Assembly: GCA_051362555.1 (NCBI GenBank)
Contig: CM120649.1
Span: 16,940,567 to 17,004,566 of the forward strand
Origin: Lingula anatina
Taxonomy: Eukaryota; Animalia; Brachiopoda
Direction: 5' to 3'
Length of the DNA stretch: 64,000 nt
Of this stretch, positions 1 to 21,854 are shown in pieces; positions within the stretch are counted from its first letter, which is position 1; each line of letters opens with the position of its first letter. Position numbers and translations under genes: made by a program. Below the pieces are notes generated by a model, which saw only the letters and a list, made by a program, of their open reading frames with translations, was not told the DNA's origin and ran no database searches.

Positions 1-433
1 ATTTTTACCTCTTATATAGCCTGCGGTGAGGAAGACAAAACGGTTTACTACTTTAATTCGAGTTCAAGATGGCAGTCGTCTATTAGATTCTTTAATGACA
101 CACGTAATTTCTGCTTGCTTTGACTGGTTGCTTGATGTTTGTTGATATTAGCAAAAATGCATGTAGGTTATTATACATAGATAGAAGCCGGATTGACCAT
201 GTGCACATTGAATGCGTAAAGGTTTATAACTTAAAATTTGAAAATAGATGGCAGGCGAACAGGAAGATTTCCTTTGGCGGCAATTTTATCTTTATTGATT
301 TTTCTTAATTCATTTTGCTCATGGGCAAATCGTCGTAAGTGTTCAGCATTTCTGGTATTGCACGACCTTAGTGGGCAGTTAAAGGTCCAATATGACAAAT
401 CCCTTCGCAGATTCAGACAGCGTTGTATTCAGT

Positions 434-630
434 CAGGCCTGTAGCCGGGGGGGGGGGGGGGGGGGGGGGGGGAGGGGGGGGGGGGTTCGGAGGGTTCAAA
501 AGAACCGCCCTTTTGCTGTGAAAAGGTCCACTCTGGGTAAAATTTGATCTAGGTAAATTAAGTTTTTATGGAAAAAGGTCCACTTTTTCAGAAAAAGAAC
601 CCCCTTTTGAAATTGCTAGCTACGGGCCTG
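434..630. mobile_element. MITE (CAGGCC-GTAGC termini, 5-bp TSD)
   Basis: Inverted termini CAGGCCTGTAGC / GCTACGGGCCTG; TSD TCAGT at 429-433 and 631-635. The paralogous site in copy 2 (about 7060) is empty. Confidence 0.8.
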
Positions 631-725
631 TCAGTGTACATTATGAGGGCAGGTTGGCAATAGTGAGCGGGTTTGAATAAATCCTAAAATGTCAACAGTA
701 AACCTTACCCACTGCGAGCATATTC

Positions 726-761
<36 letters not shown>

Positions 762-797
762 ATTAATTGTTCTTGTCTTTCAGAAAAAAAAAACGCC

Positions 798-3306
798 ATG
801 ATGACGAAGTTTCTGGCAAGCCTTTTAGTGCTTGGCCTTATGGGGCTGACTGCCGTGATTGGACAAGAAGAACGATTCCCCTCAAATCCAGACGGCGCTA
901 TATTCCGAACAACTCTCGAGGGCGGAACGTCGGTAGTGACCGGGTATTCAACAAACCAAGCCACATCACCGGATGGCAAATCCTACCCAGCGTGAGTGTA
1001 TTCACATCTGGGTCTTCTTTGATTGGAGAGCACGCGGTGTGCTGAGCCTTTATATTAACTGACGTTTTTTGTATTTTCTTTCTGTCTTTATTCCTTCTTT
1101 TTGTATTGTTACTTTTTTGCTTCCTTTCTCTTTATACCTTTTTTATTCCATTGTTATTTATCATTACCATTATCCGTACTAGTCTTTCTCAAAACATTAC
1201 TCATCGTTTAATAACATCATCAAGATATTTTTATTGTAACATAGGCCTACTGTTCTATTTCAATTTGTTTTCTGGCATTTTATTCTGTGATCTATTTTAA
1301 AATGCACGTGCACATTTTATTTCAAAAGGGTGGTCAGGGAGCATAGCGAATTCCCCACAAGAGCACCATTGGGTGGTGAGGACTCTCATCCACAGGACGG
1401 CGTCTCTGAGAATACAGGACAGGTTAACCCGAGGGCCAAGCGACAGGCCAGGTACACAAACTCAAGACATACATTATTTTCGTCTTTTCCTGCTTATGGC
1501 AGCTCTGGTTTGAGTAAGGGTGGGGTTGGGGAAGCTCTTCAAAACCTCCTGCTTAACTTCACAGGTACATTGTACGCCCCCCCCCCCCTCCCACCCCTCC
1601 AAAAACAGTTTAATCAAATTAGGGAAGCGAGATAAAAATTAAGTATGTTTGACCTACATACATGTATTTAAGTAAAATTGGTCTCGTCTACAATAGTATA
1701 TTATCACCTTTAGCAACGCCCGTCAGAAAAAACCTGGATCCGCCAGTGGATTGATAAATTAACAGCTGAAAAGATCAGCAGTTATAAAACTTGTATAAGT
1801 AGAAAATAATTGCAGAAATCTTGACATGTTTTCCAGCGATCTTGATGCTTTCTTAGCAAAGGTGATGTATTTTAATATTTTCATATTCATTTATCTATCT
1901 AATCATTTTATTTAATGTTCCGTTTTAGTCAAAATTATATATATATATGCCTCTATTTAGATAGCATTTACACAGCTTTGGTACGATTAGTTTGCCAAAA
2001 GTAAGAAAATGTTCGAATTTATTTCATCTGTAGATTAGTTCAAAACACAGCATCTTTTAAATATATACTTATTAACTAGTAATCATTTCATGTTTATTTG
2101 TCCATTCTAGTCTCTTCAGTCCTTGCCGGATGGTGCTCTACTGGGTCAGACCGTGGTGGGTGTACTGGGGAAATATTTGGTGGCCTGTCATGAACTCCCC
2201 CTGGTGGGGATGGCACTGGTATCACTGGTGGTATTGTCTGTAAGTTTTAATTATATTATCTAAATTCATATCGTACGTTAGAAATTAATGATACAGTATA
2301 GGTATTGAATTGTCTCGTGCCTACTTTCATTTTCTATATCTTTCTCCAGTGTTAATTGCTCTTCTTCGCAAATTTAAAATACTATAGAAGAATTGACTAT
2401 AGGGTCTTTTGAGGGATTTTAAAAATCTGCACTTAGACCAATATTTTATTGGTTATGGAAGGTTCAAGAGGGACAGTTTGGTGAGAGAATGTTGTCCTAA
2501 AATTTACACCTTTAGAAACTTGAACACATTTTGTTAAGTATAAGTGCGGTGTCCTTCATTTCCATTGATAGCACGGTGTGTCTAGGACCCCATTTCCAGA
2601 GATTAGATCGATCTACTTTAGATCGACCTACCTCCCTGGGGGTTCACGCTAAATTAGCTGTTAGCCGAGCGAACACGAAAGTTAATTACCCCCTTACAGC
2701 TGGTAGTAGGCGGGACGGACATTTAAGCCGGATTATCTGACAGTAATCTAGTGAGACTCCCCGCGGTGATAGATCGATCAAAAAGCTCTGGGAATACAGC
2801 CTAGGTGAAGTGCTGATTTGTAGCCTCATCTTTTTTCATACCCAAGACTACGAGCATTAAAAAATCCACAAGGGCAATAAAGTCATTTTTTTCAATGCAA
2901 ATATGAATTGCCACAGTTGCCTTCTTGATTTGGGATGGCCAAACAATAAATGAATAAAACAGGATATTGTAAGCTTTATGTACATATAATGTGCTTTCAG
3001 TGTTTCAATTGATTTCAACTTAGAACTATAAAATGATATTTTATTATGTGTATCAGATTCAGTCACTATAAGTGGGAAACTGTGAACAACATTTGGTTAT
3101 TTTATTTATTTATTTTTTTTTTCAGACCAAGTCTATGCAGAGCCGGCATTTATGACGGAAAGACTTTAAGATATCTGTGCTCGCGTTGTAGAACGGAGTG
3201 GGGCTGGATTCGTGTACCGATATGGTATTACTGGAGCCCACGTTGGATTTGGATCCGCGCACCTGTCGGGTGTTGCTGCGACATTAGGAACCAGTGGTGG
3301 TGCTGA
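798..3306 (+). CDS. Secreted Trp-rich cystine-knot (Spaetzle/neurotrophin-like) precursor, copy 1 (208 aa)
   Basis: Coding exons 798-991, 1329-1451, 2111-2239, 3126-3306; all introns GT-AG and phase 2; total 627 nt. Signal peptide MMTKFLASLLVLGLMGLTAVIG, acidic pro-region ending RAKR, then QASLFSPCRMVLYWVRPWWVYWGNIWWPVMNSPWWGWHWYHWWYCLPSLCRAGIYDGKTLRYLCSRCRTEWGWIRVPIWYYWSPRWIWIRAPVGCCCDIRNQWWC. Many differences between paralogs are synonymous in this frame. AATAAA at 3647-3652. Family assignment is by motif spacing only. Confidence 0.85.
2586..2801. mobile_element. MITE with 3-bp TSD (PIF/Harbinger-like)
   Basis: Imperfect TIRs GACCCCATTTCCAGAG / CTCTGGGAATACAGCC; TSD TAG. Empty site in copy 2 (about 8980). 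A second family member lies at 39571-39795. Confidence 0.75.
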
Positions 3307-3578
3307 GGCACAGGCCACGTGACGTCACGTCGTCCGATCGTCCTCAATATCAATACGTGAACGCTTGGTTGTATATTGCTTTGTAGCACTGAAGTACAAG
3401 TCAATAGACACTTTTGAAAGAACAATCGGTACGAATTCCTCATCTCATGTAATCTACCGCGTATCTTAGTCTGAAATTCAGAACAGGCTAAACTTGGACT
3501 TTTGACTTTTTGCATTTAAAGCAGATCGTTTGATATTTTTGTTTTTGACCCACTGGGCTTAAATACATAGTACTGTGC

Positions 3579-3618
<40 letters not shown>

Positions 3619-4336
3619 TACCAGTTTAGAAAGAGGCGATTAGACGAATAAAAAATCAAAAATAGATGGCTGTTATGTTGTTGGTTTCCGAATAAAACTA
3701 ACGATGACAAAGTACAATGGTTTCCCTTTGTGCAATAACTGTGCAAAACGCCACAAACTACATGATGCATACGTCACCTTCTACAAAGGTAGAATTTGAA
3801 AATACTTAAAAAATTTCTTCACATTTAAATGGGGGTGTCCTGAGAGGGGACAGAAGACACGAGCCCCGCATTTAGCTCTTTATAACTACCGAAACGATTA
3901 TCTTTTCAACGCCCTGACCCCCCTCATTTGACAAAACCCTGGATCCACAAATAAGCTTAATTATCAAATCAACAAATATTCGATCAGTTTAATTGTTTGG
4001 TTTTTTTTTAAATCGCTTATTTATTTCACTTCAAAAATGAGTTAGCTTAAATATAACGGTTGCTTTAAATTACCTAATTTGAAAGAACCGGAAAGGGTCC
4101 GTTTTCAATCAAAATTGATCATTTATCAAGTTGTGTCAATTCAGAGGGTGAAAAAGGTTTTGAAATTGCTTATTAAAGATCAGGACTCTTTTGATGCACC
4201 ATATTACTCTTATTTGTCTGACAGTTAAAGAAACTGAAAAAAAGAGATATATAGAGACACAATGTAGACGTTTCTGCCCTCGCAAACAAAGGGAATTTAT
4301 GTAGCCAAATGTTCACAAGCACAACGAAGCTTTTTC

Positions 4337-4372
<36 letters not shown>

Positions 4373-4632
4373 GCTCAAAAGTAAATAGGACTAAGGTCAA
4401 TGCGATTGAAAATTGTCATTTGTTAATGACGAAAAATATGATACAAAGTTAAAAAATGGGGGATAATCATACCTACCCATATTATATAATTGATAAAGTA
4501 AGTTAATGAGTGCAACCAAGGCGATATATGTGAAACACCGAAAGGTATTGGAGCAAACGTCGGCACAAGTGAAAAATAAAACCCCAAAAAATTTATTTGT
4601 TTATGACTAAAAACCAGAAAGTTTGAAATTAT

Positions 4633-5301
4633 CACCCTGAGCTTCAGAGATAACTTGCCACTAACCTCTTCACTATAGCCTATCTTCATCGTGTCAAGTT
4701 ACCTCTGACCACATTCGATTGCCTCCGCCGCCCGCCAATCAAATTTAAAGCCCGCACTCAATGACTTATTGAACGATCTAGCCAATGAACGCGAACGAGT
4801 CAAAGCGCGCTTTGTTCAAATCCGGACCAATCAAAGATAAGGCTGAATATCAGGGACTTGCCGTAACCTGTGGGCAGCACGCAAAATACATCATCCCTCA
4901 GTAGATAATGATGCAGGGCCTCAAACTGATCTGGTTTCAATTCCGATATACTCATATTTTGCAAAGAATCAAGAGATAACTTAACACATTAATTTACGTA
5001 GTCACTCGTAGGAGACGCCATGCTTTCTTTGTGTACGGTTATGCACTCGGAACTACTCGGATGTCTCCGCACTCGACAATAACTTTGTTGTTAGTATGGA
5101 GCTTGCGGAATCAGCCGAGGATTGCCGATTGACGGTCAACCAATCAGCGTTTTCACCAAACTTTGGTGAAAAATTTTGAAACATGGATTCGATTGGCTTA
5201 TATAAACTAGGTCAAACTATTTTCGTCAGAGGTAACTTGACACGATGAAGATAGGCTATAGTGAAGAGGTTAGTGGCAAGTTATCTCTGAAGCTCAGGGT
5301 G
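4633..5301. mobile_element. Non-autonomous DNA transposon with 77-bp perfect TIRs and 8-bp TSD
   Basis: 4633-4709 is the exact reverse complement of 5225-5301. TSD GAAATTAT at 4625-4632 and 5302-5309. No transposase ORF. Confidence 0.9.
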
Positions 5302-6249
5302 GAAATTATATGACGGTTTATGATTCGTAATTCTGTGAACGACTTTTGGATATAGTATTCCATCGATGATTTAAGGAAAAGTGTAGAAATTTTCGTGTCA
5401 GTTAGTTTTTTCATAGATCCCTTTATAATGGTCTAAGTTAACTTGCGTGCCTTTAATACAATACCGTCACGTTTTCATTTTGTAAATAAGACGCTGCGGA
5501 TCTTCCTTCGAGGCACGCACCACATTTAAAGACCATAAAATTAATTTTCAATTAGTGATTTCCACGTACAACAGCAAAAAACATCTATCATTTTTAAAAC
5601 GTGATTAAGACAAAGTCAAAGGAGCCAACGCTAATCCACCAAGGGAGATCTACAAGTACGGAATGCTTAATTTGCCTTGAATGCATTACTATATTGCCCA
5701 TCATATTGGATAGATTTCAACTTTTTTATTCTTAAAAAATAATATCTAATGAGAATAAGTAAACAGAAAGTTACGTGGGACGTCTCTGAAACACATGGAT
5801 GTCGAAGTAGAAGTTATGAAAAAACTTTTAATCCGTTTTTATAAATAATTCTCGTCGTCATTTTCACCCTATATATCCAAGCAAAACGTTTAATGAAATT
5901 TTGACTAGCTTCTCTGAAGATCTTAAAAATTGAGGCTTTGTTTTCAGTAACTGCCAGATACAGTGTTTGTCGTTTAATGCAAACAGTTGCAGATCTTGCA
6001 TATCAATTAAACCAGCAATTAATTTTTCTTTTTCAGGTTCACACATAAACATTATCTATCCATTTATTTATTTTCATTTCTTATTGTTCATCTATTTATT
6101 CATTCATTTTATTTTATTTTATTTTATTTCATTTTATTTTATTTTATTTTATTTTATTTTTTTTGGCAGACGAATCAAGGCCAAAACATATATAAATCAT
6201 GTTGTTTTTGCCATATCTCGTAATTGATCAATTAAGCGTCGCTAAATGA

Positions 6250-6381
6250 TGACTCATTTTAATTTACAATCGACACTTTTCTCTTTTATTTCCTTGACGA
6301 ATTGTATAAATACGACCCTTCCAAAATTCCAATAAAAGAATTTCTTCTGTGAGTTTGGAGTGCTGCGACTCATAAGCAAAG
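6250..6381 (+). promoter_or_regulatory. Promoter and non-coding exon 1 of copy 2 (AP-1-type site, TATA box)
   Basis: TGACTCA at 6250-6256, TATAAATA at 6305-6312, splice donor after 6381. The same arrangement and spacing precede copies 3 and 4. Confidence 0.65.
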
Positions 6382-6396
6382 GTATTGGTGTGTCAT

Positions 6397-6642
6397 TTTT
6401 ACCTCCGCCAAGGAGGTTATGTTTTCACCCCTGTCTGTCTGTCTGTTTGTTTGTTTGTCATCAACATAACTCAAAAAGTTATGGACCGATTTTGATGAAA
6501 TTTTCAGGATAGGTGGGAAATGGGTTAACTTAGAAGTGATTAGTTTTAGGTGGTGATCCGGATCAATTATCAATCAATAATCAATAATAATCAAAAATCG
6601 CTGCCACGGCGGAGGTCTGCGCTCTCGGAGTGCTTTTCTAGT
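6397..6642 (+). mobile_element. Non-autonomous Helentron/DINE-like element in intron 1 of copy 2
   Basis: Subterminal inverted repeats CCTCCGCC / GGCGGAGG, internal (CTGT)n(TTGT)n microsatellite, 3' hairpin GCGCTCTCGGAGTGC, ends CTAGT, inserted in a T run. Absent at the equivalent position of copy 1 (window start). Confidence 0.7.
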
Positions 6643-7196
6643 TTACTTCTTAAATAGTCTGGGGTGTATAATGCAAAATGGTTTAGTACTTTAATTGGAG
6701 TTCAAGATGGCCGTCGTCTGTTAGATTCTTTAATGACACACGTAATTTCTGCTTGTTTTGACTGGTTATTTGATGTTTGCTGATATTAGCAAAAAATGGA
6801 TGTAGGTTATTTTACATAGATAGAAGCGGGTTTGACCATATGCACACTTGAATGCGTAAAGGTTTATAACTTAAAAATTTAAAATAGATCGCAGTCGAAC
6901 ATGAACATTTCCTTTGGCGGCATTTTTATCTTTATTGATTTTTCTTAATTGATTTTGCTCATCGGCAAATCGTCGTTAGTCTCCAGCATGTCTGGTATTG
7001 CTGGAACTTAGTAAGGTCCAATATGACGAAGCCCCTTGCAAAATCAGACTACGTGGTATGCAGTGTACATTATGAGGGTAGATCGGCAATAGTGAGCGGG
7101 TTTTGAATAAATCCTAAGATGTCAACAATAAACCTTACCCACTGCGAGCAGATTCATTTTGTTTTATTAATTGTTCTTATCTTTCAGAAAAAAAAA

Positions 7197-9483
7197 ATGG
7201 GGAAGTTTCTGGCAAGCATTTTAGTGCTTGGCCTGTTGGGGCTGACGGCTGTGGTTGGACAAAAAGAAAATTTCCCCGCAAACCCAGACGGTGCTTTATT
7301 CAGAACAACTCTCGGCGGGTCGGCGGTAGTGACCGGGTTCTCAACAAACCAAGCCACGTCGCCGGATGGCAAACCCTACCCACCGTGAGTGTATTCACAT
7401 CTGGGTCTTCTTTGACTGGAAAGCACGCGGTGTGCGGATCCTCTATGTTAACCTGACGTTTTTTGTTTTTTGTTTTTACTTTCTTTCTGTCTTTCTTTAT
7501 TTCCTTCTTTGTGTATCGTTACTTTCTTGCTTCCTTTCTCCTTTCTCTTTTCTTAATTACATTGTTATTTCACATTACCATTATCCGTATTGGTCTTTCT
7601 CAAAATATTACTCATCGTTTAATAAATACATCAAGATATTTTCATTGTAACATATTCAATAATTTTTTCTGGTCTTTTTTCTGTGATCTATTGTAAAATG
7701 CACGTGCACGTTATTTCAAAAGGGAGGTCAAGCAGCATAGCCAATTCCCCACAAAACAACCATTGGGTGGTGAGGACTCTCATCCACAGGACGGCGTCTC
7801 TGAGATAGGAGGACAGGTCAAGATGAGGGGGAAGCGGCAGATCAGGTACTCAAACTCGTGACATAATTTCATCGTTTTCCTGCTTATGGCAGCTCTGGAT
7901 TGAGTAAGGGTGGGGGTGGGGAGCTCTTCCAAACCTCCCGCTTAGCTTTAGAGGTACGTTGTACCCCCCCCCCCCCAAAAAAAAAAAAAAAAAAAGAAAA
8001 AAACGGCATAATATAGCAAGGGAAACAAAATAAAAACCACGTATTGTTTATCCCTGTGATTGTTGTAAAATTGGTTTCTTCTCCTTTATTACCCCCCCCC
8101 CCTTCAGCAACCTCTTTCAGCAACAATACCCTGGATCCCCTGAAAAAGATCAGCAGTGAGTTAACTTGTAGAGCCTGATAAAAAATTACAGAAATCTTGA
8201 TAAGTTTCCCAGCTCTCTTTTGCCTTCTTTGCAAAGGCAGGTATTTTTTCTATTTTCCATTTTTGTTTAGCTACATTATTATTTTATTTTATTATATTTT
8301 TTAATACGATAATTTGCTTTTGAGTTAATTAATTACGATAAATAATTAAAATTAGGGCCCAGGCCCAAAAATAACCTAAAGTACCTTCGACAGATATTGC
8401 TCATATGCCAAAACTCAGAAAATGTTCAAATCAATTTCACCTGTAGTTTAGTTCAGCACTTTTTACATGTATACTTATTGGCTGGTAATTATTTCATACA
8501 TATTTCTCTATTCCAGTCAGATTGGTTTTTGCCGGGTGGTGCTTTACTGGGTCAGACCTTGGTGGGTTTACTGGGGAAATATTTGGTGGCCTGTCATGAA
8601 CTCACCCTGGTGGGGATGGCACTGGTATCACTGGTGGTACTGTCTGTAAGTTTTTATTGTATTATCTTAATTCCTATTGTACGAGTGTGAAATAAAGATA
8701 CAACATAGGTATTGAATTGTGTTGTGCCTTCTTTCATTCTCTATCTTCTTCTTCATAGTGAATTTTTTTCTGCTTGTTTGAAATACTATAGAAGTACTCC
8801 TATAAGATCCCACTGGGGATATTTGAAAGCCAAAGGACCAATAACATTCAAGAGAGGCAGTTTTGTTAGGGTAGTGCACATACTGCCAAATGTGGTCCTT
8901 AAATTGTACACGTAAACCTGAACACATTTTGTTAAGTAGAGATGCGGTGAATTTCATTTCCATTGATGACACGGCGTGTCTAGGTGAGGTGTTGATATGT
9001 AGCGTCATCTTTTTACATACGCAGGCACAAAGCCAAGACTACGAGCACTAAAGTACACAAGTGCAATTAAGTCATTTGTTTCAAATACAAATATTAATAA
9101 CTACAATATCATGCTTGATATGGGATAATCAAACGATAAATAAATAAAGCAGGATAAGCTTCATGCACGTGAAATGTCCTTTCAGTGTTTCAATTGATTT
9201 CAACTTAGAACTATAAAATGATATTTTATTATGTGTATCAGATTCAGTAACTAAAAGTGGGAAACTGTTAACGTCATTTGGTTATTTTTTTTCTTTTTCC
9301 AGACCAAGTCTATGCAAGGTCAGCATTGCTGACCCAGGGAATATAAGATATCTGTGCTCGCGTTGTAGAACGGAGTGGGGCTGGATTCGTGTACCGATAT
9401 GGTATTACTGGATTCCACGTTGGATTTGGATCCGCGCACCTGTCGGGTGTTGCTGCGACGTAAGGAATCAGTGGTGGTGCTAA
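7197..9483 (+). CDS. Secreted Trp-rich cystine-knot precursor, copy 2 (206 aa)
   Basis: Exons 7197-7384, 7723-7845, 8517-8645, 9303-9483, with the same 123/129/181-nt exon sizes and phases as copy 1. Cleavage site RGKR|QISQIGFC. Non-coding exon 1 ends at 6381 (AAAG|GTATTG). AATAAA at 9766-9771. Confidence 0.85.
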
Positions 9484-10720
9484 CGCACAGGCCACGTGAC
9501 GTCAAGTCGTCTGATCGTCTTCAAGAACAATAGGTGCTTGCTTAGTTATATACCGCTTTGAAGCACTGAATTACAAGCCAATATATATTTTTGACAGAAC
9601 AATCGGTACAAAATTCTCATCCCCTGTAATCTACCGCGTAACTTAGTCTGAAATTCAGAAAAGGCGACACTTGGACTTCTGTCAATTTGCATTTAAAGCA
9701 GACCATTTGTATTAGGCCCACTGAGCTTTCATCTGTATTACCAGTTTAGAAAGAGGCGATAGGCGAATAAAGAAATTAAAGATCAAAGGCTGTTATGTTG
9801 TTGGTTTTCAAATAAAGCTCACGGTGACTTAGACAGTACAATTGTTTTTCCTTTGTGCAATAACTGTGCAATACGCGCTACCAACTACACAATGTTGTTT
9901 TGTCTACAAAGATATTTAGACTTCATATTTAAATGGGGGGGGGGGGCTCAGAAGACCCGTGCCCAGTTCTCAGCTACGGAATCATCACTTCTCCCTCTTC
10001 AAAACCAGCAAAACGTGGTGTAAAAATTGATTCCCCCCCTCATTTGACAAAACCCTGGATCCACCAATAGAATTAATAATCAAATCAATCAGTTTAATTT
10101 TTTTTTTTAATTTTTTTTTTTTTAATTTTACGTCAGAAATGCTTTGCTTGAAATATAACGGTTACTTTAATTTTTTTTAATTTGAAAGAACCGGAAAGGA
10201 TCCGTTTTGAATCCAAATTTGATCTAGGTTCTATGCCTTTTGTCAAGTTGTGTCAATTCAGAGGGTGAAAAGGTTTTGAAATTGCTGATTAAAGATCGAC
10301 CCTTTTTTGATGCTCCATACTACTCGTATTTGTCTGACAGTTAAAGAAACCGAAAAAAAAAAGAAATAGACAGAGACACAATGTCGACATTTCTGCCCTC
10401 GCAAACAAAGGGAATTTATGTTGCCAAATATCCACAAGCACAACGCTCAAAAGTAAATTGGACTTAGGCGTATACATGTACGACCGAAAATTGTCATTTA
10501 TGAATTACGAAAAATATGATACACAGTTAAAAAACGGGGGATGAATATACAACCCCCATTCTATATAAATACCATAATATATAATTAATCAAGTATGTGA
10601 ATAAAGTAGAATAATGACCAACCAAGATTAATTAAGAAAGTATGTGAAATAACAAAAGCTATTGGAGCAAAATTTTGGCAAAAATGAAAAATAAAATCCC
10701 GAAAATTTACTTGTTAAATG

Positions 10721-11272
10721 GCTCACCGCCACCCTCGGCGACAGTCTAAATTATTTTCTTCGTCGCCTCAGCATGTCTGGAGTAATGATTCAGGTTTTAG
10801 AATCAAATAATTGAGAGAAATCATCAAAATCATCAACTACCAGGGTGTAGTTATATTCCTGGTTTACTAACAAGCAATAGTACATTACTGTGCTGTCAAA
10901 TGCTCTGAAATATTCATTCTCACAACTGCCACTTTTCTTTCTCCTAGTCCTACTGGGCCATTTTCTCCATTAACAATTTGATGATCAGTGAGAAGATTGA
11001 TCTACAATTTGAGCATATGCATACTGGGATGAATTGAAAAGTGCTGATTAGAGATACTAAAGTCTTGACAAGTTTTCTATATAAAATGCATATTTTAACC
11101 TTTCAATATCTTCTGTTCCTTTGGGAAGCTCCTTCAACACAAGCAGTGAACCTAGAAATCTTATAATTATAATTTTATATCCTTCTCATATTCAGAGACT
11201 TAAGCATAGAGCGGCACACATAGTTGCAATGTATATTTGCACCAAGCTAAACATGAAAGATCGATATAGATC

Positions 11273-11320
<48 letters not shown>

Positions 11321-11525
11321 TATCATTATTATTATTATTATAAAAATTTGATAAATTTGATAAATTATCCTCTGACAACATTGTCATGGTAACAAGTTGT
11401 CATGGCACATACCTGCACGGATGCACTAATGTCATTGGTGGTCCAGGCAGGTGAGGATGCGTCTCCATGGTAACAGTTTTTAGGCGTGAGCCTGACTGAA
11501 GTCCGGATACCTGATTCACTTTGAG
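10721..11525 (-). pseudogene. Degenerate duplicate fragment of ATG3 (exon 8, intron 8, start of exon 9)
   Basis: 10721-10777 aligns to 23407-23463 and 11413-11525 aligns to about 24899-25015. It still reads [20 protein letters not shown], but has indels and a TAA just upstream. Confidence 0.85.
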
Positions 11526-11541
11526 AAACTCACTGTCCTAT

Positions 11542-11736
11542 GATCCCACTCTACGGAGACTCAGATTAACGGATTAACACGCCCCCTATTGTTTCCAATA
11601 ACTTGTCAGTTTTCTCTATTTTCTACTCAATGCCAGGGGGAAGCGTGTTTATCTGTTAGTCTGATTACATTCAGCAAAAGTCCCCGTGGAGTTGGATCGA
11701 TCTCCGTAGAACGATATTTTCATTGGGAATGACCCC
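11542..11736. mobile_element. Degenerate MITE, related to 33452-33692
   Basis: Shares TTCTACTCAATGCCAGG..GAAG.GTGT and AGTCCCC..GAGT blocks and the TGGGAATG terminus with the copy at 33452-33692. Boundaries approximate. Confidence 0.55.
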
Positions 11737-12419
11737 GTAGACCCCAGCATAACGGTCTAATTTTAACTGCGTGACAATTTCCTCCTGTTTTCATTTTGTA
11801 AATAAGAAGCCAGGGATCTTCGTTTTAAGTACGCTCTTCATTTAAAAGCTATAAAATGAATATTCAGTAAGGGATTACAGCAGCAGCAAAACACTTTTAA
11901 AACGTGTTTTAAACAGCTAAACTGATTTTGCCAAAACCACCGAGGGAGATCTTCAAGTACCTCGCAGAATGCTTTAATTGCTTTGAATGCATTAATAAAT
12001 TACCATCGAATTGAATCGATTTAAATGCACTATAAAAAAAATCTTGAGAATAATAAACAGGAAGTGACGTGGGATATAACGATAGAACGGCTTTTGGTCG
12101 CTATTTCGATACTTAATGACCGACGTGAATTTCCTCCTTTCTATCCAATCAAAACGCTGAATGAAATTTTGATTGGCCTCTTTTTTCAGTAACCAACAGA
12201 TATGTTTTTTGATGCAGACAGTTTCAAAGAAGTTAAATGAAATTGACGCTTTCAGGTTCGATTTGAAAATTATTCTTTAGTTTTTTCATATTATTTATTT
12301 GTTTATTAATTCATGCGTTTTATTTTGTCTTTGACAGATGGATAAATGCCAAAACATTAATATATATCATGTTGTTTTTGCCAAATCTTTTGAATAACCA
12401 GTTGAGCGGCGCTGAATAA

Positions 12420-12552
12420 TGACTCATTTTAATTTTTAATCAAAACTTTTCTCTTTTATTTCCTTGTCGAATTCTATAAATACAACCCTTTCAAAATTCT
12501 AATAAACAGAATTTCTTCAGCGAATTCAGAGCGCAGCGACTGACAAGCAAAG
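12420..12552 (+). promoter_or_regulatory. Promoter and non-coding exon 1 of copy 3
   Basis: TGACTCA at 12420-12426, TATAAATA at 12475-12482, donor AAAG|GTACTG after 12552. Confidence 0.65.
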
Positions 12553-13825
12553 GTACTGTAATTTCGTTTTTATATTATTTTGCTTTTTAAATCGTATGCA
12601 GTGTATAAAGAAAAATGGTTCACTACTCGAATTGGAACTCAAAATAGGCGCCGTTTTTTATATATTTTAGTAATATCACATTCAGCTTCTGCTTATTTTG
12701 TGTTTGATGTTGGTTTACATCTATTTTGGATAATAAAGAAACACTGCAGGAGTTCATAGAGGTAAAAGTAAGGCTGGTCATTCTTGTACCTTTATTCGTA
12801 AAGGTCACTGTTTTAAAACTTAAGTGCAAAATTGATAACATTCAAATATGCGTTCAGTTTTGGAGATCCACTCATAAATGTACATCCAAAATTAATTTAA
12901 AGGAAGTTGTTTTGATTGCAAGGTCATATGGTCAGAAATTTCTGTATCATTTCCCCAAAAAAGAACACAAGCCAAGATTTCACGCCAAAACTCGAAATTT
13001 ACTGGGATAGATGGAATTTTCCCCCGACTTACCAACCTTAAATCTCCCTTTTGTGACACTCACCATAACCCTGTAACAATTTTTTTGAAAAATTAAAAAA
13101 AAATTCAAAACCTGCGCTTCAGCGCTGGATTGTCACAACGACTTTCTACAAAGGTTGAATATGGTTACTTTTTGCGCTGTTGATTAAGGCCATCTTTCTG
13201 TCAATTTATGCTTTAAAATTTGTAATTGTCCCCAGGTTAATTCAACGAGCAGCAATTCGTGCTCGTAGAATGCCTTTCACATTCCTGTCTTTTGTCTCTT
13301 AAAGTCGTAAAACACGACGGTCTGCCTCTGAGGCATTATGAAAGATAACCTCTGGTTACAGGGTCCGCTAGTTACTAATCTGTTACAATATTAGATATGA
13401 TATCAGAGGACAATGAAAGAATATATGAACGTGAAACAGGATGGTTTGAAACAACAGGAACGCAATGGACATTTTCCTTAACGGATGTTTGGTCTAAATT
13501 GAAATTTATCAATATTCATTTTCCTCTTTATGGAAATCGCCGTGATGGCTTAGTTTGTTTGGTGTCGTGTAAAGCTTTGCCAGGCCAGGCGGGACAATTA
13601 ACAGCCCAATTTGATGTAAAATCCCTCGCAAGTGCAGACGGCGCCGTAGGTCTATTTCCGTGTAAATCTTGAGGGCGAGTTGGCTTTAGTTTAGTTAGCG
13701 GATTTTTAACAAATCATCAGTTGCCACCTGATGGCAAACGTTGTGCACTCTGTAGGCCTATATTGTTTAGTATTATTATTGTTATTATTATTTAAAATTT
13801 CTTTTCTTTCAGACAAATTTTCGTG

Positions 13826-15902
13826 ATGACGAAGTTTCTGACTAGCCTAGTAATACTGGGTTTGACGGGCCTGAACGCGGTGGCTGGACTATTTCCGTTA
13901 ACAATTCACCCCCCTCCCACTGATTACACACTCCCACCCCCCACTGGAGACACACCACCACCACCACCCACTGATGATACAGAAGGATTTCCCGAAAATC
14001 CAGACGGCGCTATATTCAGAACAAATCTCGAGGACGGGACGTTGATAGTGACCGGGTTCTCAACAAACCAAGCCACGTCACCGGATGGTAAACACTACCC
14101 AGCGTGAGTATATTCACTTCTGGGTCGTCTGTGCTGATCCTGTATATTAACCTGGCTTTTTTCATTTTTTGCTTTGCTTTTTCCCCTTTTTCTTGTTCAT
14201 TACTCTCTTACTTTATCTCTTCCTTCCTACTCTTTTTTTAAATTTCGCATTACCTGTCCGTACGCGCCTTTCTTCAAATATTATACTTCTTTTATTATTA
14301 AACTATAAGATATTTTCATGTAACATGCATAATTCGATCTATGTAAGTAAGTTCTGTTTGGATGTTTAGTCTGTGATCAATTAGAAATACACATGCACAT
14401 TATTTCAACAGGGAGGTCCACGAACATAGCGAATTCCCCACACACCAACCAGAAGGTGCAGACGACTCTCACCCACAAGACGGCGTCTCTGACATACAGG
14501 CGCACCCCCACCTGGTGGCCAAGCGGCAGATCAGGTGTAACACTAATAACTTTTTTCTTCGATTGTTACAATACAATACGTATAACAAGGGAATCAAGAC
14601 ATAACAAGTAATTTGTGAATCCCTATGTCCTCGGATTAAAGTAAAACTCTTCTCGTATTATCCCTTACCTCTTCAGCAACCCGCGATTGCATTGGTAAAT
14701 TCAACATTTGAAAAAGATCAGCACGTACATGTAGAACCAGAAAAATTACACAAGCCTAGACATGCTTTACGAACTAACTGAATTAGGGTCCCAGACTCGT
14801 AGAACTTGGGACTGGAAAATTACTAATCTGCCAAAAGTCAGAAAAATAAAAAAAATTTATATTAATTTCATCTGTAGTTTACTTTAAAACACAACGCCTT
14901 TTACATATAAGATTATTGTCAATTATTTCATATATATTTGTCCATTCCAGTCAGATTAGTTATTGCCGGACGGTGCATTACTGGGTCAGGCCGTGGTGGG
15001 TGTACTGGGGAAATATTTGGTGGCCCGTCATGAACTCCCCCTGGTGGGGATGGCACTGGCATCACTGGTGGTATTGTTTGTAAGTTTTCATTGCATTACA
15101 TCCATTTCCTACTCGATGAATTAAAATAGTGATATTTTTTTAATTGTAGTACTTTTATTAACTACTCTATGAGCAAGAAATAATGATGAAATATCGGTTT
15201 GAAATTTGCGTGCTTCTACTTTGAAGCTTCGTCTCCTTGACAGTTGTATTTCTTTACTAGTTTGAAATAGTATAAAAGTACCCATGCCCAATAGGGTCCT
15301 ATAAACTTTTCTATAAGATCCAACAGAAAATTCACGTAGGAAACTTTTGAAATATCCATATTTGGACCAATAAGGTCGCTAGAGTAAGTTTTTAAAGGTC
15401 TTGCACATAGTGCCAAGCGCGGCGCGATGCGGTGAATTTCATTTCCATTAATAAGACGTTACGTCCTGGTGCAGTGTTGATTGTTGCCTCATCTTTTTTT
15501 CATACGCAGCCACAAAGCCAAGACTACGAGCACTAAAATAGACACAAGTGTAATTAAGTCATTTGTTTTCAATGCAACTATGAATAGCCACAGCTGCCTT
15601 CTTGATATGGGATAACCAAACCATAATTAAATATATAAATAAACTGAACGTCGAACGTTCATTTACGTATCAAAATGAGTTGCTGCTAGTTGAAATCATT
15701 TGATTATTCTTACTTTTTCAGACCAGGTCGATGCAGAGCCGTCATGTTTGAAGGAAGAAGGTTTAGATATTTGTGCTCGCGTTGTAGAACGGAGTGGGGC
15801 TGGAAACGTGTGCCGGTGTGGTATTACTGGATCCCGCGCTGGATATGGATCCGCGCACCTGTCGGGTGTTGCTGCGACATTAGGAATCAGTGGTGGTGCT
15901 AG
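13826..15902 (+). CDS. Secreted Trp-rich cystine-knot precursor, copy 3 (236 aa), with Pro/Thr/Asp-rich insert after the signal peptide
   Basis: Exons 13826-14103, 14412-14534, 14951-15079, 15722-15902. Cleavage site VAKR|QISQISYC. Reading frame intact. Non-coding exon 1 ends at 12552. AATAAA at 16255-16260. Confidence 0.85.
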
Positions 15903-16399
15903 TCTACACGTCACGTGATGTCACGCCGTCTGATTATCTTCAACAAAATAAAAAAAATACATGCACTGGCATAAATATTGCTTTGTAGGTAGCACTGGAG
16001 TATAATACGTTGATAGATATTTATGACAGAGCAATCGGTCCATAATTCTAATATACCACACGTTATCTACCGCGTAACTTTTTGTCTGAAGTACAGAATA
16101 AGCTATTACTTGGACTTTTGATTTTCCACGTTTAGATTTAAAGCTGACTACCGGTATTTGTTTTAGGCCTACTGAGATTTAATATATATAGTATTGTGTA
16201 ACCATATCTCTCTCTCTCTCTCTCTCCCTCTGTACCAGTATAGAAAGACGCGTGAATAAAGATATCAAATACGAATGGCTTTGATGTTGTTTGTTTACGT
16301 CAATTAATCATCTAAACTTAACCAAAACTGTTACGTTGCCTAAGACAGTGCCTTGTTTCCCTGGCATAAAAATGTTCTTGTGCTCTCCTCAATTGACAA

Positions 16400-16916
16400 A
16401 ATCTTAGATCCACCAAAATTATTTATCAAATCAACAAATCAGTATTTAATCTATCAGTTTGTTCTTTTATTTAGCACCATCATAGACGTATGTCTTGAAT
16501 TGCTTTAAATGTAACGGTTGCCTATTTCAAAATTACTGAAATTGAAACTGCACCTTTTATGGTCTTGACCGGAAAAGGTCTGTCTGAATAAAAAATTAAG
16601 CCAACACCTGTAAAATAATTATATAATTTTCAGATATTTGTTTTTTTCATAATAATCATGTGTAAAAAGTGTAAATCTTGATGTACCATATTAAAAAGAT
16701 TCAACTAAGCTCGGTTTACGTTACTGATTTATTTATTTGTAAGAACACAGATCAGTGTCACTCACGCTATAGCTACTTACATAAATTCATTATATTTTAT
16801 CTACAGTGGGTGTCATATTTACCCTGTAGTGATTGTTTGTCTGATTTACACATATCTGCCTTCTCAAACAAAAGGAATTTTTACAACATTCCCCAGGTGG
16901 ACTTTTCTACGTTATT

Positions 16917-16951
<35 letters not shown>

Positions 16952-17388
16952 TATTTTTATTTTATTATTTTTTTTTTGCATCTTTAAAAATTAATCAATT
17001 CAGTTAAATGCACTCCCTGGCTATTAACGGAATTAACACAGCTTTTAACTTTAATTTTGGAATCATACTTAGCCAGAGTTCCTTTTTTAATTTCTTTTAA
17101 TTCCATTTGTAAATTTTATGTTCTGCTTTACCAACAGTTGAGAACATCTCCCGCCTTGAAAGGCATACATTTAATATAAAGAATATTCGGTTCTCCCTTG
17201 CATAACAAGGCTAGGGCAGTTTTTCACATGGGTATTGGTTTTGTCTTTAAATTCTATGCAATTGATGCTATCTTCTGTTTTTACATGGAAAATGACTTAA
17301 GTAATCATCTTCCATACTGGAAATACGTGTAAATTATTCACCCACTCAAGTCATTTGCTAAGTAATATTCAATGCTCAATAGAAATTT
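16400..17388. repeat. Segmental duplicate of the region downstream of the ATG3 stop (probable 3' UTR; matches about 22270-23230)
   Basis: Long near-identical alignment, e.g. 17000-17385 versus 22832-23228. It ends at a sharp junction with the promoter sequence seen at 11821. Confidence 0.85.
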
Positions 17389-18001
17389 CGTTTTAAGTAC
17401 GCACTACATTTAAAAGATATAAAATGAATATTCAGTAAAGGGTTACTTAACAGCAGCAAAACAGGTATCATTTCAAAAACGTGTTTTAAACAGCCGTGTT
17501 TTAAACAGCCAAATCCACCAAGGAGATCATCAGGTACCTCGCAGAATGCTTTAATTGCTTTGAATGCATTAATAAATTACCATCGAATCGATTTAAATGT
17601 ACTTATAAAAATAGCTATCATGAAGATAAGCAACAGGAAATGACGTGCAACGAAAAATCGGATCTTGGTCGCTTTTTCGATACTTAATGTCCGACGTAAA
17701 TTCCCCCTTTCCATTCAATCAAAACACTGAGTGAAATTTTGATTGGCCTTTTTTTTCAGTAACCAACAGATTTGTTGTTTGATGTAGACAGTTGCAAATC
17801 TCGCATATTTATTAAAGAAATTAAATGAAATTGACGTTTTCAGGTTGAAAATTACTCGTTCATTTTTTCTTGTTATTTATTAATTTATTAATTCATCCAT
17901 TTTATTTTGTCTTTGACAGATGGATAAATGCCAAAACATTCATATAAATCATGTTGTTTTTGTCAGATTTTTTTAATAATCAGTTGGGTGGCCCTGAATA
18001 A

Positions 18002-18134
18002 TGACTCATTTTAATTTATAATCGAAACTTTTCTCTTTTATTTCCTTGACGAATTCTATAAATACGACCCTTTCAAAATTCCAATAAACAGAATTTCTTC
18101 AGTGAATTCAGAGAGCAGCGACTAACAAGCAAAG
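18002..18134 (+). promoter_or_regulatory. Promoter and non-coding exon 1 of copy 4
   Basis: TGACTCA at 18002-18008, TATAAATA at 18057-18064, donor AAAG|GTATTG after 18134. Confidence 0.65.
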
Positions 18135-19131
18135 GTATTGTAATTCCGTTTTTATATAATTTTGCTTTATAAATCGTATGCAGTGCATAAGGAAAAATGG
18201 TTCACTACTCAAACTGGAACTCAAAATAGCCGGCGTCTGTTATATTTTGGTAATATCACATTAAATTTCTGCTTATTTTGCTGTTGGTTTACATCTATTT
18301 CGGCTAATAAAGAAACACTGCAGAAGTTCATAGAGGTAAAAGTTAGGCTGGGCATACTTATATTATATTATACGTGTAACTTAATTCGTAAAGGTCACTG
18401 TTTTAAAAGTGCAAAATTGATAACATTCAAAAATGCGTTCAGTTTTGGAGATCCACTCATGTGCATGCAAAAATTAATTTAGTAGTTGTTTGATTGCAAT
18501 GTCGTAGGCCTATGTTAAAAATTTCTGTATCATTTTCCCATAAAAGAACACAAGCCAGGGTTTTCACGCCAAAACTCACATTTATCGAAATTTCCTGGGA
18601 TAAATGGAATTTTTCCCCAACTTCCCAACCTTAAATCTTCCTTTTGTGACACTCACCATAAACCTGTAACAATATTTTTGAAAAATAAAAAAAATCAAAA
18701 CCTGCGCTTTGAACAGCGCTGGCTTGTCACAACGACTGACCACAAAGGTTGAATATGGTTACTTTTTGCGGAGGCCATCTTTCTGTCAATTTATGCTTCA
18801 AAAGTTGTAATTGTCCTCAGGTTATTTCAACAAGAAGCACTTTGTGCTCGTAGAATGCTTTCAAAATCCTGTCTTTTGTCTCTTAAAGTTGAAAAACACG
18901 ATGGATTGCTTCTGAGGCATTATATAAGGTAAACCCTGACTACAGGGTCCGCTAGTTACCTCTCGCTATTACATCCCGTGTAAATTATTGAGGACAGGCT
19001 GGCTGTATTTAGTGGATTCTCAACAAATCATCAATTGCCACCTGATGGTAAACCGTAAACATACTCTGTATATTGTTTATTATTATCATTAATAAATTTA
19101 AGCCTTCTTTTCTTTCAGAAAAATTGTCGTG

Positions 19132-21854
19132 ATGACGAAGTTTCTGACAAGCCTTGTGGTGCTCGGTTTGACGGGCCTGAACGCGGTGGCTGGACTAATA
19201 ATTAGAGAACCGTATCCTACTTTGTTCCCCTTCAATCGCACATATGATCCCCCAATTGAATACACACCACCACCACCTACTGAAGACACAAAACCACCAC
19301 CACCACCAACAACCCCCACTGATGATATAGGATTCCCCGAAAATCCAGACGGTGCTATATTCAGAACAACTCTCGAGGACGGGACGGCGGTAGTGACCGG
19401 GTTCTCAACAAACCAAGCCACGGCACCGGATGGCAAACACTACCCAGCGTGAGTGTATTCACATCTGGGTCTTCTTTGACTGGAAAGCACGCGATGTGCT
19501 GCTCCTGTATATTAACTTGACGTTTCTTTCCTTCCTTTTCTTTTCTTTTTTCTTTGCTTTATTCCCTTTTTTCTTGTTCATAAGTTATTTTCTTTCTTCC
19601 CTCCTACTCTTTTTTATTGAGATAAGACAAGAGTTCATTTAGCCAATTATAAAAATCGGAAATCATTTTCCTTGTGGAGCAAGTTTAATAATACACAGAG
19701 TAAAAGTACTACAAAAGATAAATTAAGAATTTGGTTTTGAGATCAAATTAAAATGCGTCACTGCACTTGGGTAAAAGCTGTTTAAAACGCGTTTACTACC
19801 CTTAAAAGTTTTAAGTCTACTAGTGCTTGGTAAAAACGTAAAAAGTGGTGATGCAGGATGAGAAGAGTCTTCCATGGTGTTAACAGTTATTTTCTCCACT
19901 ATTAATTATACGATATTCCATGTAACATACATTGTTCGATCTATTTAAATATGTTTTCCTTGACTTTGTTTGTGATCTCTTAACAATATACGTTTACATT
20001 ATTTCAACAGGGAGGTCCACGAGCATAGCGAATTCCCCACACACCAACCAGATGGTGCAGACGACTCTCACCCACAGGACGGCGTCTCTGACATAGGCCT
20101 ACAGGCGCATCCCCACCTGGTGGCCAAGCGGCAGATTAGGTACTGCACGTAACACTAATAACTTTTTTCGTCGATTCTTACATACAATACAATGCAATAC
20201 AATGGCAGATCTGGCGTGCGTAGGTGGGAAAAAATCTCGTGCACTCTTCCCGCTTAGCTCCAGAGGCGCACGGTACCCCTTTTCCTCTAAAAACAGTGTA
20301 ACAAGGGAATCGAGACAAAACCAAGCAATTTATCAATCCCTGTGACCTCGGATATTTAAACTGTTCTCGACTACTATTCTATCCCCTACCTCTTTAGGAA
20401 CGATACCAAGGACCAGCAATTGCATTGGTAAATTCAACGTTTGAAAAAGATCAGCGTCTAGAACCAGAAAAATTACACAAGCCTTGGCATGCTTTATTAC
20501 GAACTTACTGAATTAGGGTCCCAGACTCGTAGAACTTGAGACTGGAAAATTACTAATTTACCAAAAGTCAGAAAAAAAAATTATATTAATTTCATCTGTA
20601 GTTTACTTCAAAACACAGCACCTTTTCTATATAAAGTAATTGTCTAATATTTCGTACATAATTTTACATTCCAGTTTGATTGGTCAGTGTCGGACGGTGC
20701 ATTACTGGGTCAGGCCGTGGTAGGTTTACTGGGGAAATATTTGGTGGCCTGTCATGAACTCCCCCTGGTGGGGATGGCACTGGAATTACTGGTGGTATTG
20801 TTTGTAAGTTTTCATTGTATTACATCCATTTCCTACTCCTTGAATTAAAATAGAGATAATTTTACTTAAATTGTAGTACCTTTATTAACTATTTTTAAGT
20901 AAGAAATAATGAGGAAATATCGGTTTGAAATTTCCGTGCGTTTACTTTGAATCTCCGTCTCCTTCCCCATTGACAGTTGTATTTCTTTGCTAGTTTGAAA
21001 TAGTATAGAAGTACTCATGTCCAAAAGGGTCTTTAAACTTTTCCATAAGATCCAACAGGAAATTCACAGGTCCGTAGCCAGCAATTTTAGAGGTGGGGTG
21101 GGGTTCGTTTTCTGAAAAGGTGGACCTTTTACCATAAAGTCCTCAAGTACATAGATCAAATTGTACCCAGAGTGGACCTTTTCCCAGCAAAAAGGGTGGT
21201 TCTTTTGAACCCCCCCTCCCCTGGCTACGGGCCTGATTAATGTAGGAAACTTTTGAAATACCCATATTTGGACCAATAAGGTCGAGAGAGTCAGTTTTTG
21301 TTTTGTTCTTGTACATAGTGCCAAGCGTGGCCCGATGCGGTGAATTTCATTTCCATTGATAAGACGTTGCGTCCTGGTACAGTGTTGATTTGTAGCCTCA
21401 TCTTTATTCATACCCAGGCACAAAGCCAAGACTAAGAGCACTAAAATAGACACAAGTGTAATTAAGTCAATTGTTTTCAATGCAACTATGAATTGCCACA
21501 GTTGTCTTCTGGATATGGGATAACCAAACGATAAATAAATAAATAAACGTTCCTTTATAAAGAAAACGTGGGCCAACAGGAGGGGAAACCAATTTAGAAC
21601 TATAAAATATGTGTACATATATCAAAATGTGCTACTACTAGTTGCAAACATTTAATTATTCTTAATTTTTCAGGCCAAGCCAATGCAGAGTCGGGGTTTA
21701 TGATGCCGGGTGGTATAGATATCTGTGCTCGCGTTGTAGAACGGAGTGGGGCTGGAAACGTGTGCCGATATGGTTTTACTGGAATCCGCGCTGGGTATGG
21801 ATCCGCGCACCTGTCGGGTGTTGCTGCGACATTAGGAGACAGTGGTGGTGCTAG
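19132..21854 (+). pseudogene. Trp-rich cystine-knot precursor, copy 4, with in-frame TAG in the third coding exon (pseudogene, null allele, or alternatively spliced)
   Basis: Exons 19132-19448, 20011-20139, 20675-20803, 21674-21854. TGG>TAG at 20721-20723 where the other three copies have Trp. All splice sites and all 9 Cys are otherwise intact (251 aa if the stop were read through). Confidence 0.75.
21067..21235. mobile_element. MITE, same family as 434-630, opposite orientation
   Basis: Termini CAGGTCCGTAGCCAG / CTGGCTACGGGCCTG; degenerate TSD ATTCA/ATTAA. The site in copy 3 (about 15335) is empty. Confidence 0.8.

Follow-up and report, generated by a model that had tools for sequence, protein, structure and literature searches.

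Tandem Genes for Extremely Tryptophan-Rich Predicted Precursors with a Candidate Cystine-Knot Domain in the Brachiopod Lingula anatina

Gene Organization

In the brachiopod Lingula anatina, a stretch of 64,000 nucleotides (assembly GCA_051362555.1, contig CM120649.1, positions 16,940,567 to 17,004,566 of the forward strand; in the following, “the window”) contains a cluster of four tandem paralogous genes at positions 798-21854 on the + strand. These genes specify predicted secreted precursors ending in a 105-residue domain with 20 tryptophan residues, for which a cystine-knot fold of the neurotrophin/Spaetzle/coagulogen type is moderately supported. Each paralog comprises four coding exons, separated by introns that are without exception (12 of 12) of the GT..AG type and in phase 2; exons 3 and 4 measure 129 and 181 nucleotides, respectively, in all four copies. 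The common exon architecture that had been described from the bare DNA letters (“sequence-only reading”) is, thus, borne out, and an artefact or a repeat-derived open reading frame is ruled out by the conserved intron phases, the ratios of nonsynonymous (dN) to synonymous (dS) divergence, and the spliced RNA reads.

Copy 1 illustrates how the precursor is distributed over the exons. Coding exon 1 (798..991, with ATG codons at 798 and 801) encodes the predicted signal peptide and a conserved pro-region motif, modelled as a hairpin; exon 2 (1329..1451) encodes the remaining pro-region, an R-A-K-R site and the start of the mature part; exon 3 (2111..2239) contributes knot cysteines I and II together with the tryptophan-rich finger 1; and exon 4 (3126..3306) supplies a variable loop, finger 2, knot cysteines III-VI and the stop codon. 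Copy 2 follows with coding exon 1 at 7197..7384, exon 2 with an R-G-K-R site at 7723..7845, exon 3 at 8517..8645 and exon 4 at 9303..9483, downstream of which AATAAA motifs are found at 9766 and 9811. In copy 3, coding exon 1 (13826..14103) carries a Pro/Thr/Asp-rich insertion and is followed by exons 2 (14412..14534), 3 (14951..15079) and 4 (15722..15902). Copy 4 consists of coding exon 1 (19132..19448) with a longer, Pro/Thr-rich insertion, exon 2 (20011..20139), exon 3 (20675..20803) and exon 4 (21674..21854). In its exon 3, an in-frame TAG at 20721-20723 replaces a Trp codon, so that an intact domain is not encoded as the sequence stands; this copy may be a pseudogene or a null allele, or the stop may reflect a base error. 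The earlier statement that all four paralogs encode the domain, hence, holds for copies 1-3, but not for copy 4.

A splice-acceptor-like sequence precedes the ATG in every copy; therefore, the genes probably begin with a non-coding exon farther upstream. Similarity between introns groups the units into the pairs 1+2 and 3+4, suggesting that they arose as such pairs. Scanning the window with a family profile revealed no fifth copy. Short relics resembling the exon-1 pro-region motif are present on the + strand at 18984-19055 and at about 13682-13738, upstream of copies 4 and 3, respectively.

Precursor Organization and Composition

The four precursors share a hydrophobic N-terminus (Kyte-Doolittle values of 2.2-2.8 over 11 residues), a pro-region of 80-125 residues, a Lys-Arg (KR) pair located directly before a glutamine in every copy, and the 105-residue domain that this glutamine initiates. 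From these features, secretion, furin-type cleavage and a pyroglutamate start are predicted. Regarding the cleavage site, the KR pair of the sequence-only reading was found in all copies, while the extended R-x-K-R form is restricted to copies 1 and 2, with copies 3 and 4 possessing KR only. The pro-region, which had been described as acidic, is indeed so in copies 3 and 4 (net charge -14 and -13), but hardly in copy 1 (-3) and not in copy 2 (+1); the accompanying idea that an acidic pro-piece keeps a cationic effector soluble fails for copy 2, the one for which expression is shown.

Across the copies, the mature domain contains 20 Trp, 7-8 Tyr and 9 Cys residues at a net charge of +7 to +11; for copy 1, the reported counts (105 residues, Gln start, 20 Trp, 8 Tyr, 9 Cys, net charge +8) are exact. 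Assuming a background of 1.3% Trp, the binomial probability of encountering 20 Trp among 105 residues is about 1e-17, and 19 of the 20 Trp positions are common to all four copies, apart from the stop in copy 4. The domain has a mass of 13.4 kDa and a computed extinction of about 120,000 per M per cm, corresponding to approximately 9 per mg/ml at 280 nm. Folded domains in which one residue in five is Trp are far outside ordinary protein composition.

Predicted Fold and Disulfide Pattern

A search of Pfam with the window exons and the closest full-length relatives gave no match (0 of 10 exon queries and 0 of 3 relatives), including to any antimicrobial family. Three of six distant paralogs, however, match the Spaetzle family PF16077 (E 7.7e-5, 0.004 and 0.01; 16.9-23.7 bits) over model positions 3/4 to 94/95 of 96, i.e., below the gathering score of 27 bits. 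The profile check that had been proposed for the window genes is, therefore, positive for distant paralogs below the cut-off, but negative for the window copies and their closest relatives. For one paralog, Drosophila Spaetzle is the top PDB sequence match (E 0.63) with the cysteines in register; the same database searched with the RefSeq model P0001, a close relative of copies 1 and 2, or with profile A2 returned no match at E<=10. In the ESM Atlas, a Spaetzle cluster ranks first (0.87, 180 of 256 features), which on the scale of this tool is a lead only; the best unnamed cluster (0.80) was uninformative.

A first fold from three sequences reached a predicted local distance difference test (pLDDT) value of 40.5 and was left out of the structure searches. 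An AlphaFold2 model from an 11-sequence alignment has a mean pLDDT of 67.3, with values of 77-87 in the mature domain except for one block at 65, and is composed almost entirely of strands; two long β-hairpin fingers are predicted, and the pro-region motif is modelled as a hairpin (pLDDT 70-76). With this model, the top rows in Foldseek are chains of the NGF family (probability up to 0.99, E 0.05-0.4), but no match is obtained at E<=0.001. Among 48,161 chains compared by VIA, only three attain Z>=5, namely coagulogen (Z 5.7, root-mean-square deviation (rmsd) 3.5, 109 residues aligned) and two NGF chains (Z 5.5 and 5.2); ranks 1-10 are occupied exclusively by cystine-knot proteins, and Spaetzle (3e07) is 50th with Z 2.4. 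Our moderately supported assignment to the neurotrophin/Spaetzle/coagulogen cystine-knot fold is based on the agreement of separate lines—Pfam, PDB sequence match, ESM Atlas and matches of the predicted model—and not on the Z-score alone.

Alignment with Spaetzle places the six knot cysteines at C8, C45, C50, C64, C95 and C97, with spacings of 13 (III-IV) and 30 (IV-V). They are in register, with the C-x-C end, in 10 of the 11 aligned family members, the eleventh being truncated. The predicted disulfides are C8-C64, C45-C95 and C50-C97. As the spacings of 13 and 30 are those of Spaetzle, C8-C64 is likelier than C8-C67. The knot type proposed earlier stands on four partly independent lines; its C8-C67 bond gives way to one in which C64 is probably knot Cys IV. 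Regarding the three extra cysteines, C67 is invariant, C105 occurs in every complete member, and one member lacks C96; as C67 and C105 persist in that paralog, C96 is probably the odd cysteine.

Relation to Known Cystine-Knot Families

With Spaetzle (PF16077; Spz C-106, PDB 3e07/4bv4), the window precursors share the predicted layout of signal peptide, pro-region, cleavage and a C-terminal knot of about 105 residues, as well as the cysteine register with its spacings and a W-x-x-V motif in finger 1. They differ in not reaching the Pfam cut-off, in three extra cysteines, in 19% Trp, and in the weak match of the model to 3e07. Furthermore, two residues typical of Spaetzle and neurotrophins are lost. 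The cysteine ahead of knot Cys V, the interchain cysteine of Drosophila Spaetzle, is replaced by Gly in all 10 complete members. The conserved Gln before knot Cys II, listed among the essential knot residues in PMC2586362, is present in five of the 11 aligned relatives, while the tryptophan-rich clade to which the window copies belong has His. Since the copies do not reach the Pfam cut-off and lack these two residues, the genes are filed in the superfamily and not as Spaetzle orthologues; the fold is known, and models of the genes, without a name, are already in the databases.

The neurotrophins (NGF, NT-3, NT-4, BDNF; PF00243) resemble the window proteins in dibasic processing, predicted for the latter, in heading the Foldseek results, and in VIA Z-scores of 5.0-5.5 over 86-96 residues. 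The window proteins show no sequence match to them and only 13-20% identity in the structural alignment (rmsd 3.6-5.4), and they are set apart by composition, extra cysteines and tandem expansion. Coagulogen (PDB 1aoc) comes first or shares first place among the structural matches (Z 5.5-5.7), but identity is 13-14%, there is no sequence or Pfam match, and no shared ancestry is shown beyond the superfamily. Coagulogen, which a helical segment masks, is clipped by the clotting cascade, whereas the window copies possess a KR site and a predicted β-hairpin motif in the pro-region, with polymerization a putative property. Cationic Trp/Arg-rich prepro antimicrobial peptides are a further class for comparison: common traits are a cationic, Trp-rich mature part, disulfide-bonded by prediction in the window proteins, and multigene turnover, and distinguishing traits are the much larger growth-factor-type knot and the neutral pro-piece in copies 1 and 2.

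Relatives in Lingula

A search with exon 4 yielded three matches among four candidates, all of them Lingula anatina RefSeq proteins named “uncharacterized”, and a family profile run against 1.84 billion representatives retrieved eight matches, all from Lingula. One more member was added by a second profile search (7 of 1912 candidates), which failed to recover three rows of its own query, and a further search gave one of one. In total, the family comprises 12 RefSeq loci, some of which are possibly allelic. No relatives were found outside Lingula in these searches, where word seeding is insensitive and proteomes of brachiopods and phoronids may be scarce in the databases. The sequence-only reading had named a close match to a characterised family as a reason to abandon it; all relatives found are uncharacterised Lingula proteins. 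A DUF4184 match of one paralog (E 0.04) is taken as chance, and P0012, a model of 380 residues, looks like two fused members.

The Trp content of the knot region is 10-14% in seven aligned members and 20-21% in four; in two unrooted trees, these four Trp-rich relatives and the window copies form one clade (support 100/98 and 99/96). The change in composition concerns a predicted growth-factor scaffold, of which less modified paralogs persist in the same species. By pattern match, 8 of the 11 aligned members retain the pro-region motif. P0001 (XP_013415300.1) is identical to copy 1 over the exon 1 product (64 of 64 residues, forming its N-terminus) and corresponds to copy 2 over the remainder (139 of 143); this may be due to assembly collapse, to chimeric gene modelling, or to an allele generated by unequal crossover. 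RNA reads of run X4 join copy 2 to an exon 1 of its own.

The literature searched, including queries with five locus identifiers and one accession (0 papers), revealed no description of the family, and in term searches of the two Lingula genome papers, Spaetzle, neurotrophin and tryptophan were not mentioned.

Transcription

RNA sequencing runs were picked by species label, and eight of nine listed runs were mapped, of each of which 6 or about 25 in 100 were read; runs X1, X4, X7 and X8 were mapped together, and the other four at a stricter likeness. The proposed check for spliced transcripts came out positive for copy 2, all three junctions of which are spanned in run X4, i.e., in one of eight runs: 7384-7723 by 15 reads, exon 2 to 8517 by 26 reads, and 8645-9303 by 26 reads. 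These reads have nearly all one orientation, which fits RNA from the + strand. For copies 1 and 3, there was no exon-2 depth worth mention and no listed joint in the eight runs; exons 1-3 of copy 4, covered in the four stricter runs only, showed low depth and no joints, and no joints were seen in these four runs for any copy.

In runs X7 and X8 (about 11 million reads each), a more distant paralog is found, of which only the exon-3 core aligns to the window, with a depth of 509 and 259, respectively, at position 2190. The loose ends of these reads continue as coding sequence close to P0018. This paralog was not seen in X1 and X4; the stricter likeness in the other four runs could miss it. The family is, hence, transcribed and spliced, and is switched on or off among samples. 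Repeats at 2586-2800, 4290-5340 and 6400-6650 (intronic or intergenic) attract many RNA reads in all runs, originating from transcripts elsewhere in the genome; since they inflate the depth over copy 1, they are not to be taken as expression of this copy.

Selection on the Tryptophan-Rich Scaffold

In the core of the mature domain (residues 14-45 and 62-105), dN/dS is 0.05-0.09 among the three intact copies and 0.18-0.36 in pairs with copy 4. The loop comprising residues 46-61 evolves differently, with a dN of 0.32-0.69; between copies 3 and 4, its dN is 0.39 versus a divergence of 0.14 in introns 2 and 3, and between copies 1 and 2, there are 11 nonsynonymous changes and 1 synonymous change, in a small test of about 36 nonsynonymous sites. 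The tryptophan core is under purifying selection and is accompanied by one fast loop. From the low core dN/dS and the 19 shared Trp positions it follows that the Trp content itself is selected, with the tandem array amplifying dosage.

According to secondary-structure parity, and not coordinates, W71, W73, R75 and W79 of finger 2 would lie on one side of the strand, with I74, V76 and I78 on the other, and the finger-1 strands would expose aromatic residues on both sides.

Possible Functions

Tentatively, we favour a secretion that is activated by cleavage and that, by self-association, forms an insoluble coating or matrix outside the cells, an interpretation to which we grant slightly less than an even chance. 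Candidate sites of use would be the chaetae, periostracum, pedicle cuticle, mucus, or the egg or larval coat. The precursor would be secreted and cut at KR, releasing the 105-residue knot, because this is the route known for the family (PMC9427763 and PMC2586362). During secretion, the pro-region hairpin would cap the domain, on which no polar face would be left, since finger 2 would have one face of Ile/Val and another of Trp/Arg, and finger 1 aromatic residues on both. Removal of the pro-piece could then allow aromatic and cation-π stacking, and C67, C96 and C105 could provide one extra internal bond and one possible cross-link. Self-association is favoured because a flat two-finger domain of this kind would hardly persist as a dilute soluble ligand, and because coagulogen, a clot protein that polymerises upon cleavage (PMC3634835), demonstrates that the fold can become a protease-activated polymer. 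A role as a material is further favoured by the selected and tandemly amplified Trp content, by the retained pro-region motif, by the loss of features of the signalling members (the Gln and the Cys preceding knot Cys V) from the window copies and by the abundance of one paralog in two runs. The wider proposal that Lingula, independently of coagulogen, turned a signalling fold into a bulk Trp-based structural or adhesive material, with paralogs at 10, 14 and 20% Trp recording the transition, is conceivable but doubtful. If the domain assembles, this would be the second case after coagulogen of the fold becoming a material, and its Trp/Arg chemistry would be relevant to underwater adhesives and to the organic parts of lingulids.

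Several observations speak against a self-associating material. Four of the 11 aligned relatives (P0003, P0004, P0010 and P0017) lack KR before the knot, and may be uncleaved or cut by another protease. The structural Z-scores are all below 8 and, hence, middling, NGF ties with coagulogen as structural match, and function cannot be read from a common fold. The cationic mature domain with its hypervariable loop (dN 0.32-0.69) and the birth-and-death turnover of the cluster fit defence equally. A role in the shell mineral matrix, finally, is unsupported by two shell proteomes. None of the 14 novel shell proteins in Table 26 of PMC4595640 matches P0001-3 or the four copies by length, mass and isoelectric point, in an indirect comparison confined to these proteins among the paralogs. 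The supplement of PMC13425148 (97 shell proteins) contained no match for the accessions and motifs searched, which did not include the accession of P0018, two places under one accession prefix aside. Cross-linked Trp-rich proteins could, however, escape tryptic proteomics.

Rather unlikely in our estimation is a defence effector: the cationic Trp/Arg domain would bind microbial membranes or walls of chitin or glucan and kill, trap or agglutinate the microbes at surfaces of the mucosa or the burrow, possibly by polymerising, in which it overlaps with a self-associating coating. The prepro layout and a mature charge of +7 to +11 together with 20 Trp are in line with such an effector, as are tandem duplication, the stop in one copy, relic exon pieces, a loop that outpaces some introns, and expression that changes between runs; moreover, PMC9427763 and PMC3634835 place Spaetzle and coagulogen, respectively, in innate defence. 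However, copies 1 and 2 lack an anionic pro-region, no antimicrobial Pfam family matched, loop counts are few, other pairs show a loop dS exceeding dN, gene conversion could mimic the pattern, and the near-invariant core of 20 Trp is not what an arms race predicts.

Distinctly improbable is a receptor ligand, i.e., a cleaved knot that would bind a receptor of the Toll-like, Trk or p75 type, the loop conferring specificity and the Trp residues forming dimer or receptor surfaces. The precursor layout and the knot correspond to those of the family (PMC2586362), NGF-family chains are on top in Foldseek, furin cleaves some of the Spaetzles and Toll is contacted through a Trp-loop according to PMC9427763, and one survey counts 25 Toll-like receptors (TLRs) in Lingula (PMC8609888). 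Since aromatic or aliphatic residues would occupy every face, a dilute soluble ligand is unlikely; 19% Trp and hydrophobic residues on both predicted faces would suit a diffusible molecule poorly. Loss of the conserved Gln and of the cysteine ahead of knot Cys V, the 50th rank of Spaetzle at Z 2.4 in the wide structural search, and the high abundance of one paralog also argue against it. Should the domain be a ligand or a defence protein, a spiralian with an expanded Spaetzle-like family would be at hand; in this group, one survey detected no orthologue of Spaetzle in a nemertean, and it assumed that TLRs are activated directly (PMC9835746).

An ultraviolet-absorbing or high-index optical filler, or an egg-coat or sperm recognition protein with a diversifying loop, is highly improbable, for although the extinction at 280 nm, the sample-restricted expression and the variable loop would agree with it, absorbance follows from composition and shows no purpose.

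Neighbouring Features

Downstream of the cluster, a Ty3/gypsy-type long terminal repeat (LTR) retrotransposon is located at 27926-32678 (+), bounded by identical 207-bp LTRs (27926-28132 and 32472-32678) and containing an open gag-pol frame of 1329 residues with reverse transcriptase, RNase H and integrase; it is a recent insertion. An open frame of 109 residues at 24242-24568 (-) has no Pfam match and is possibly a transposon remnant. A type IV collagen gene extends on the - strand from about 37600 to 58300, and probably beyond; it includes 38 Gly-X-Y stretches, and the exon at 37637-37945 encodes a C4 domain.

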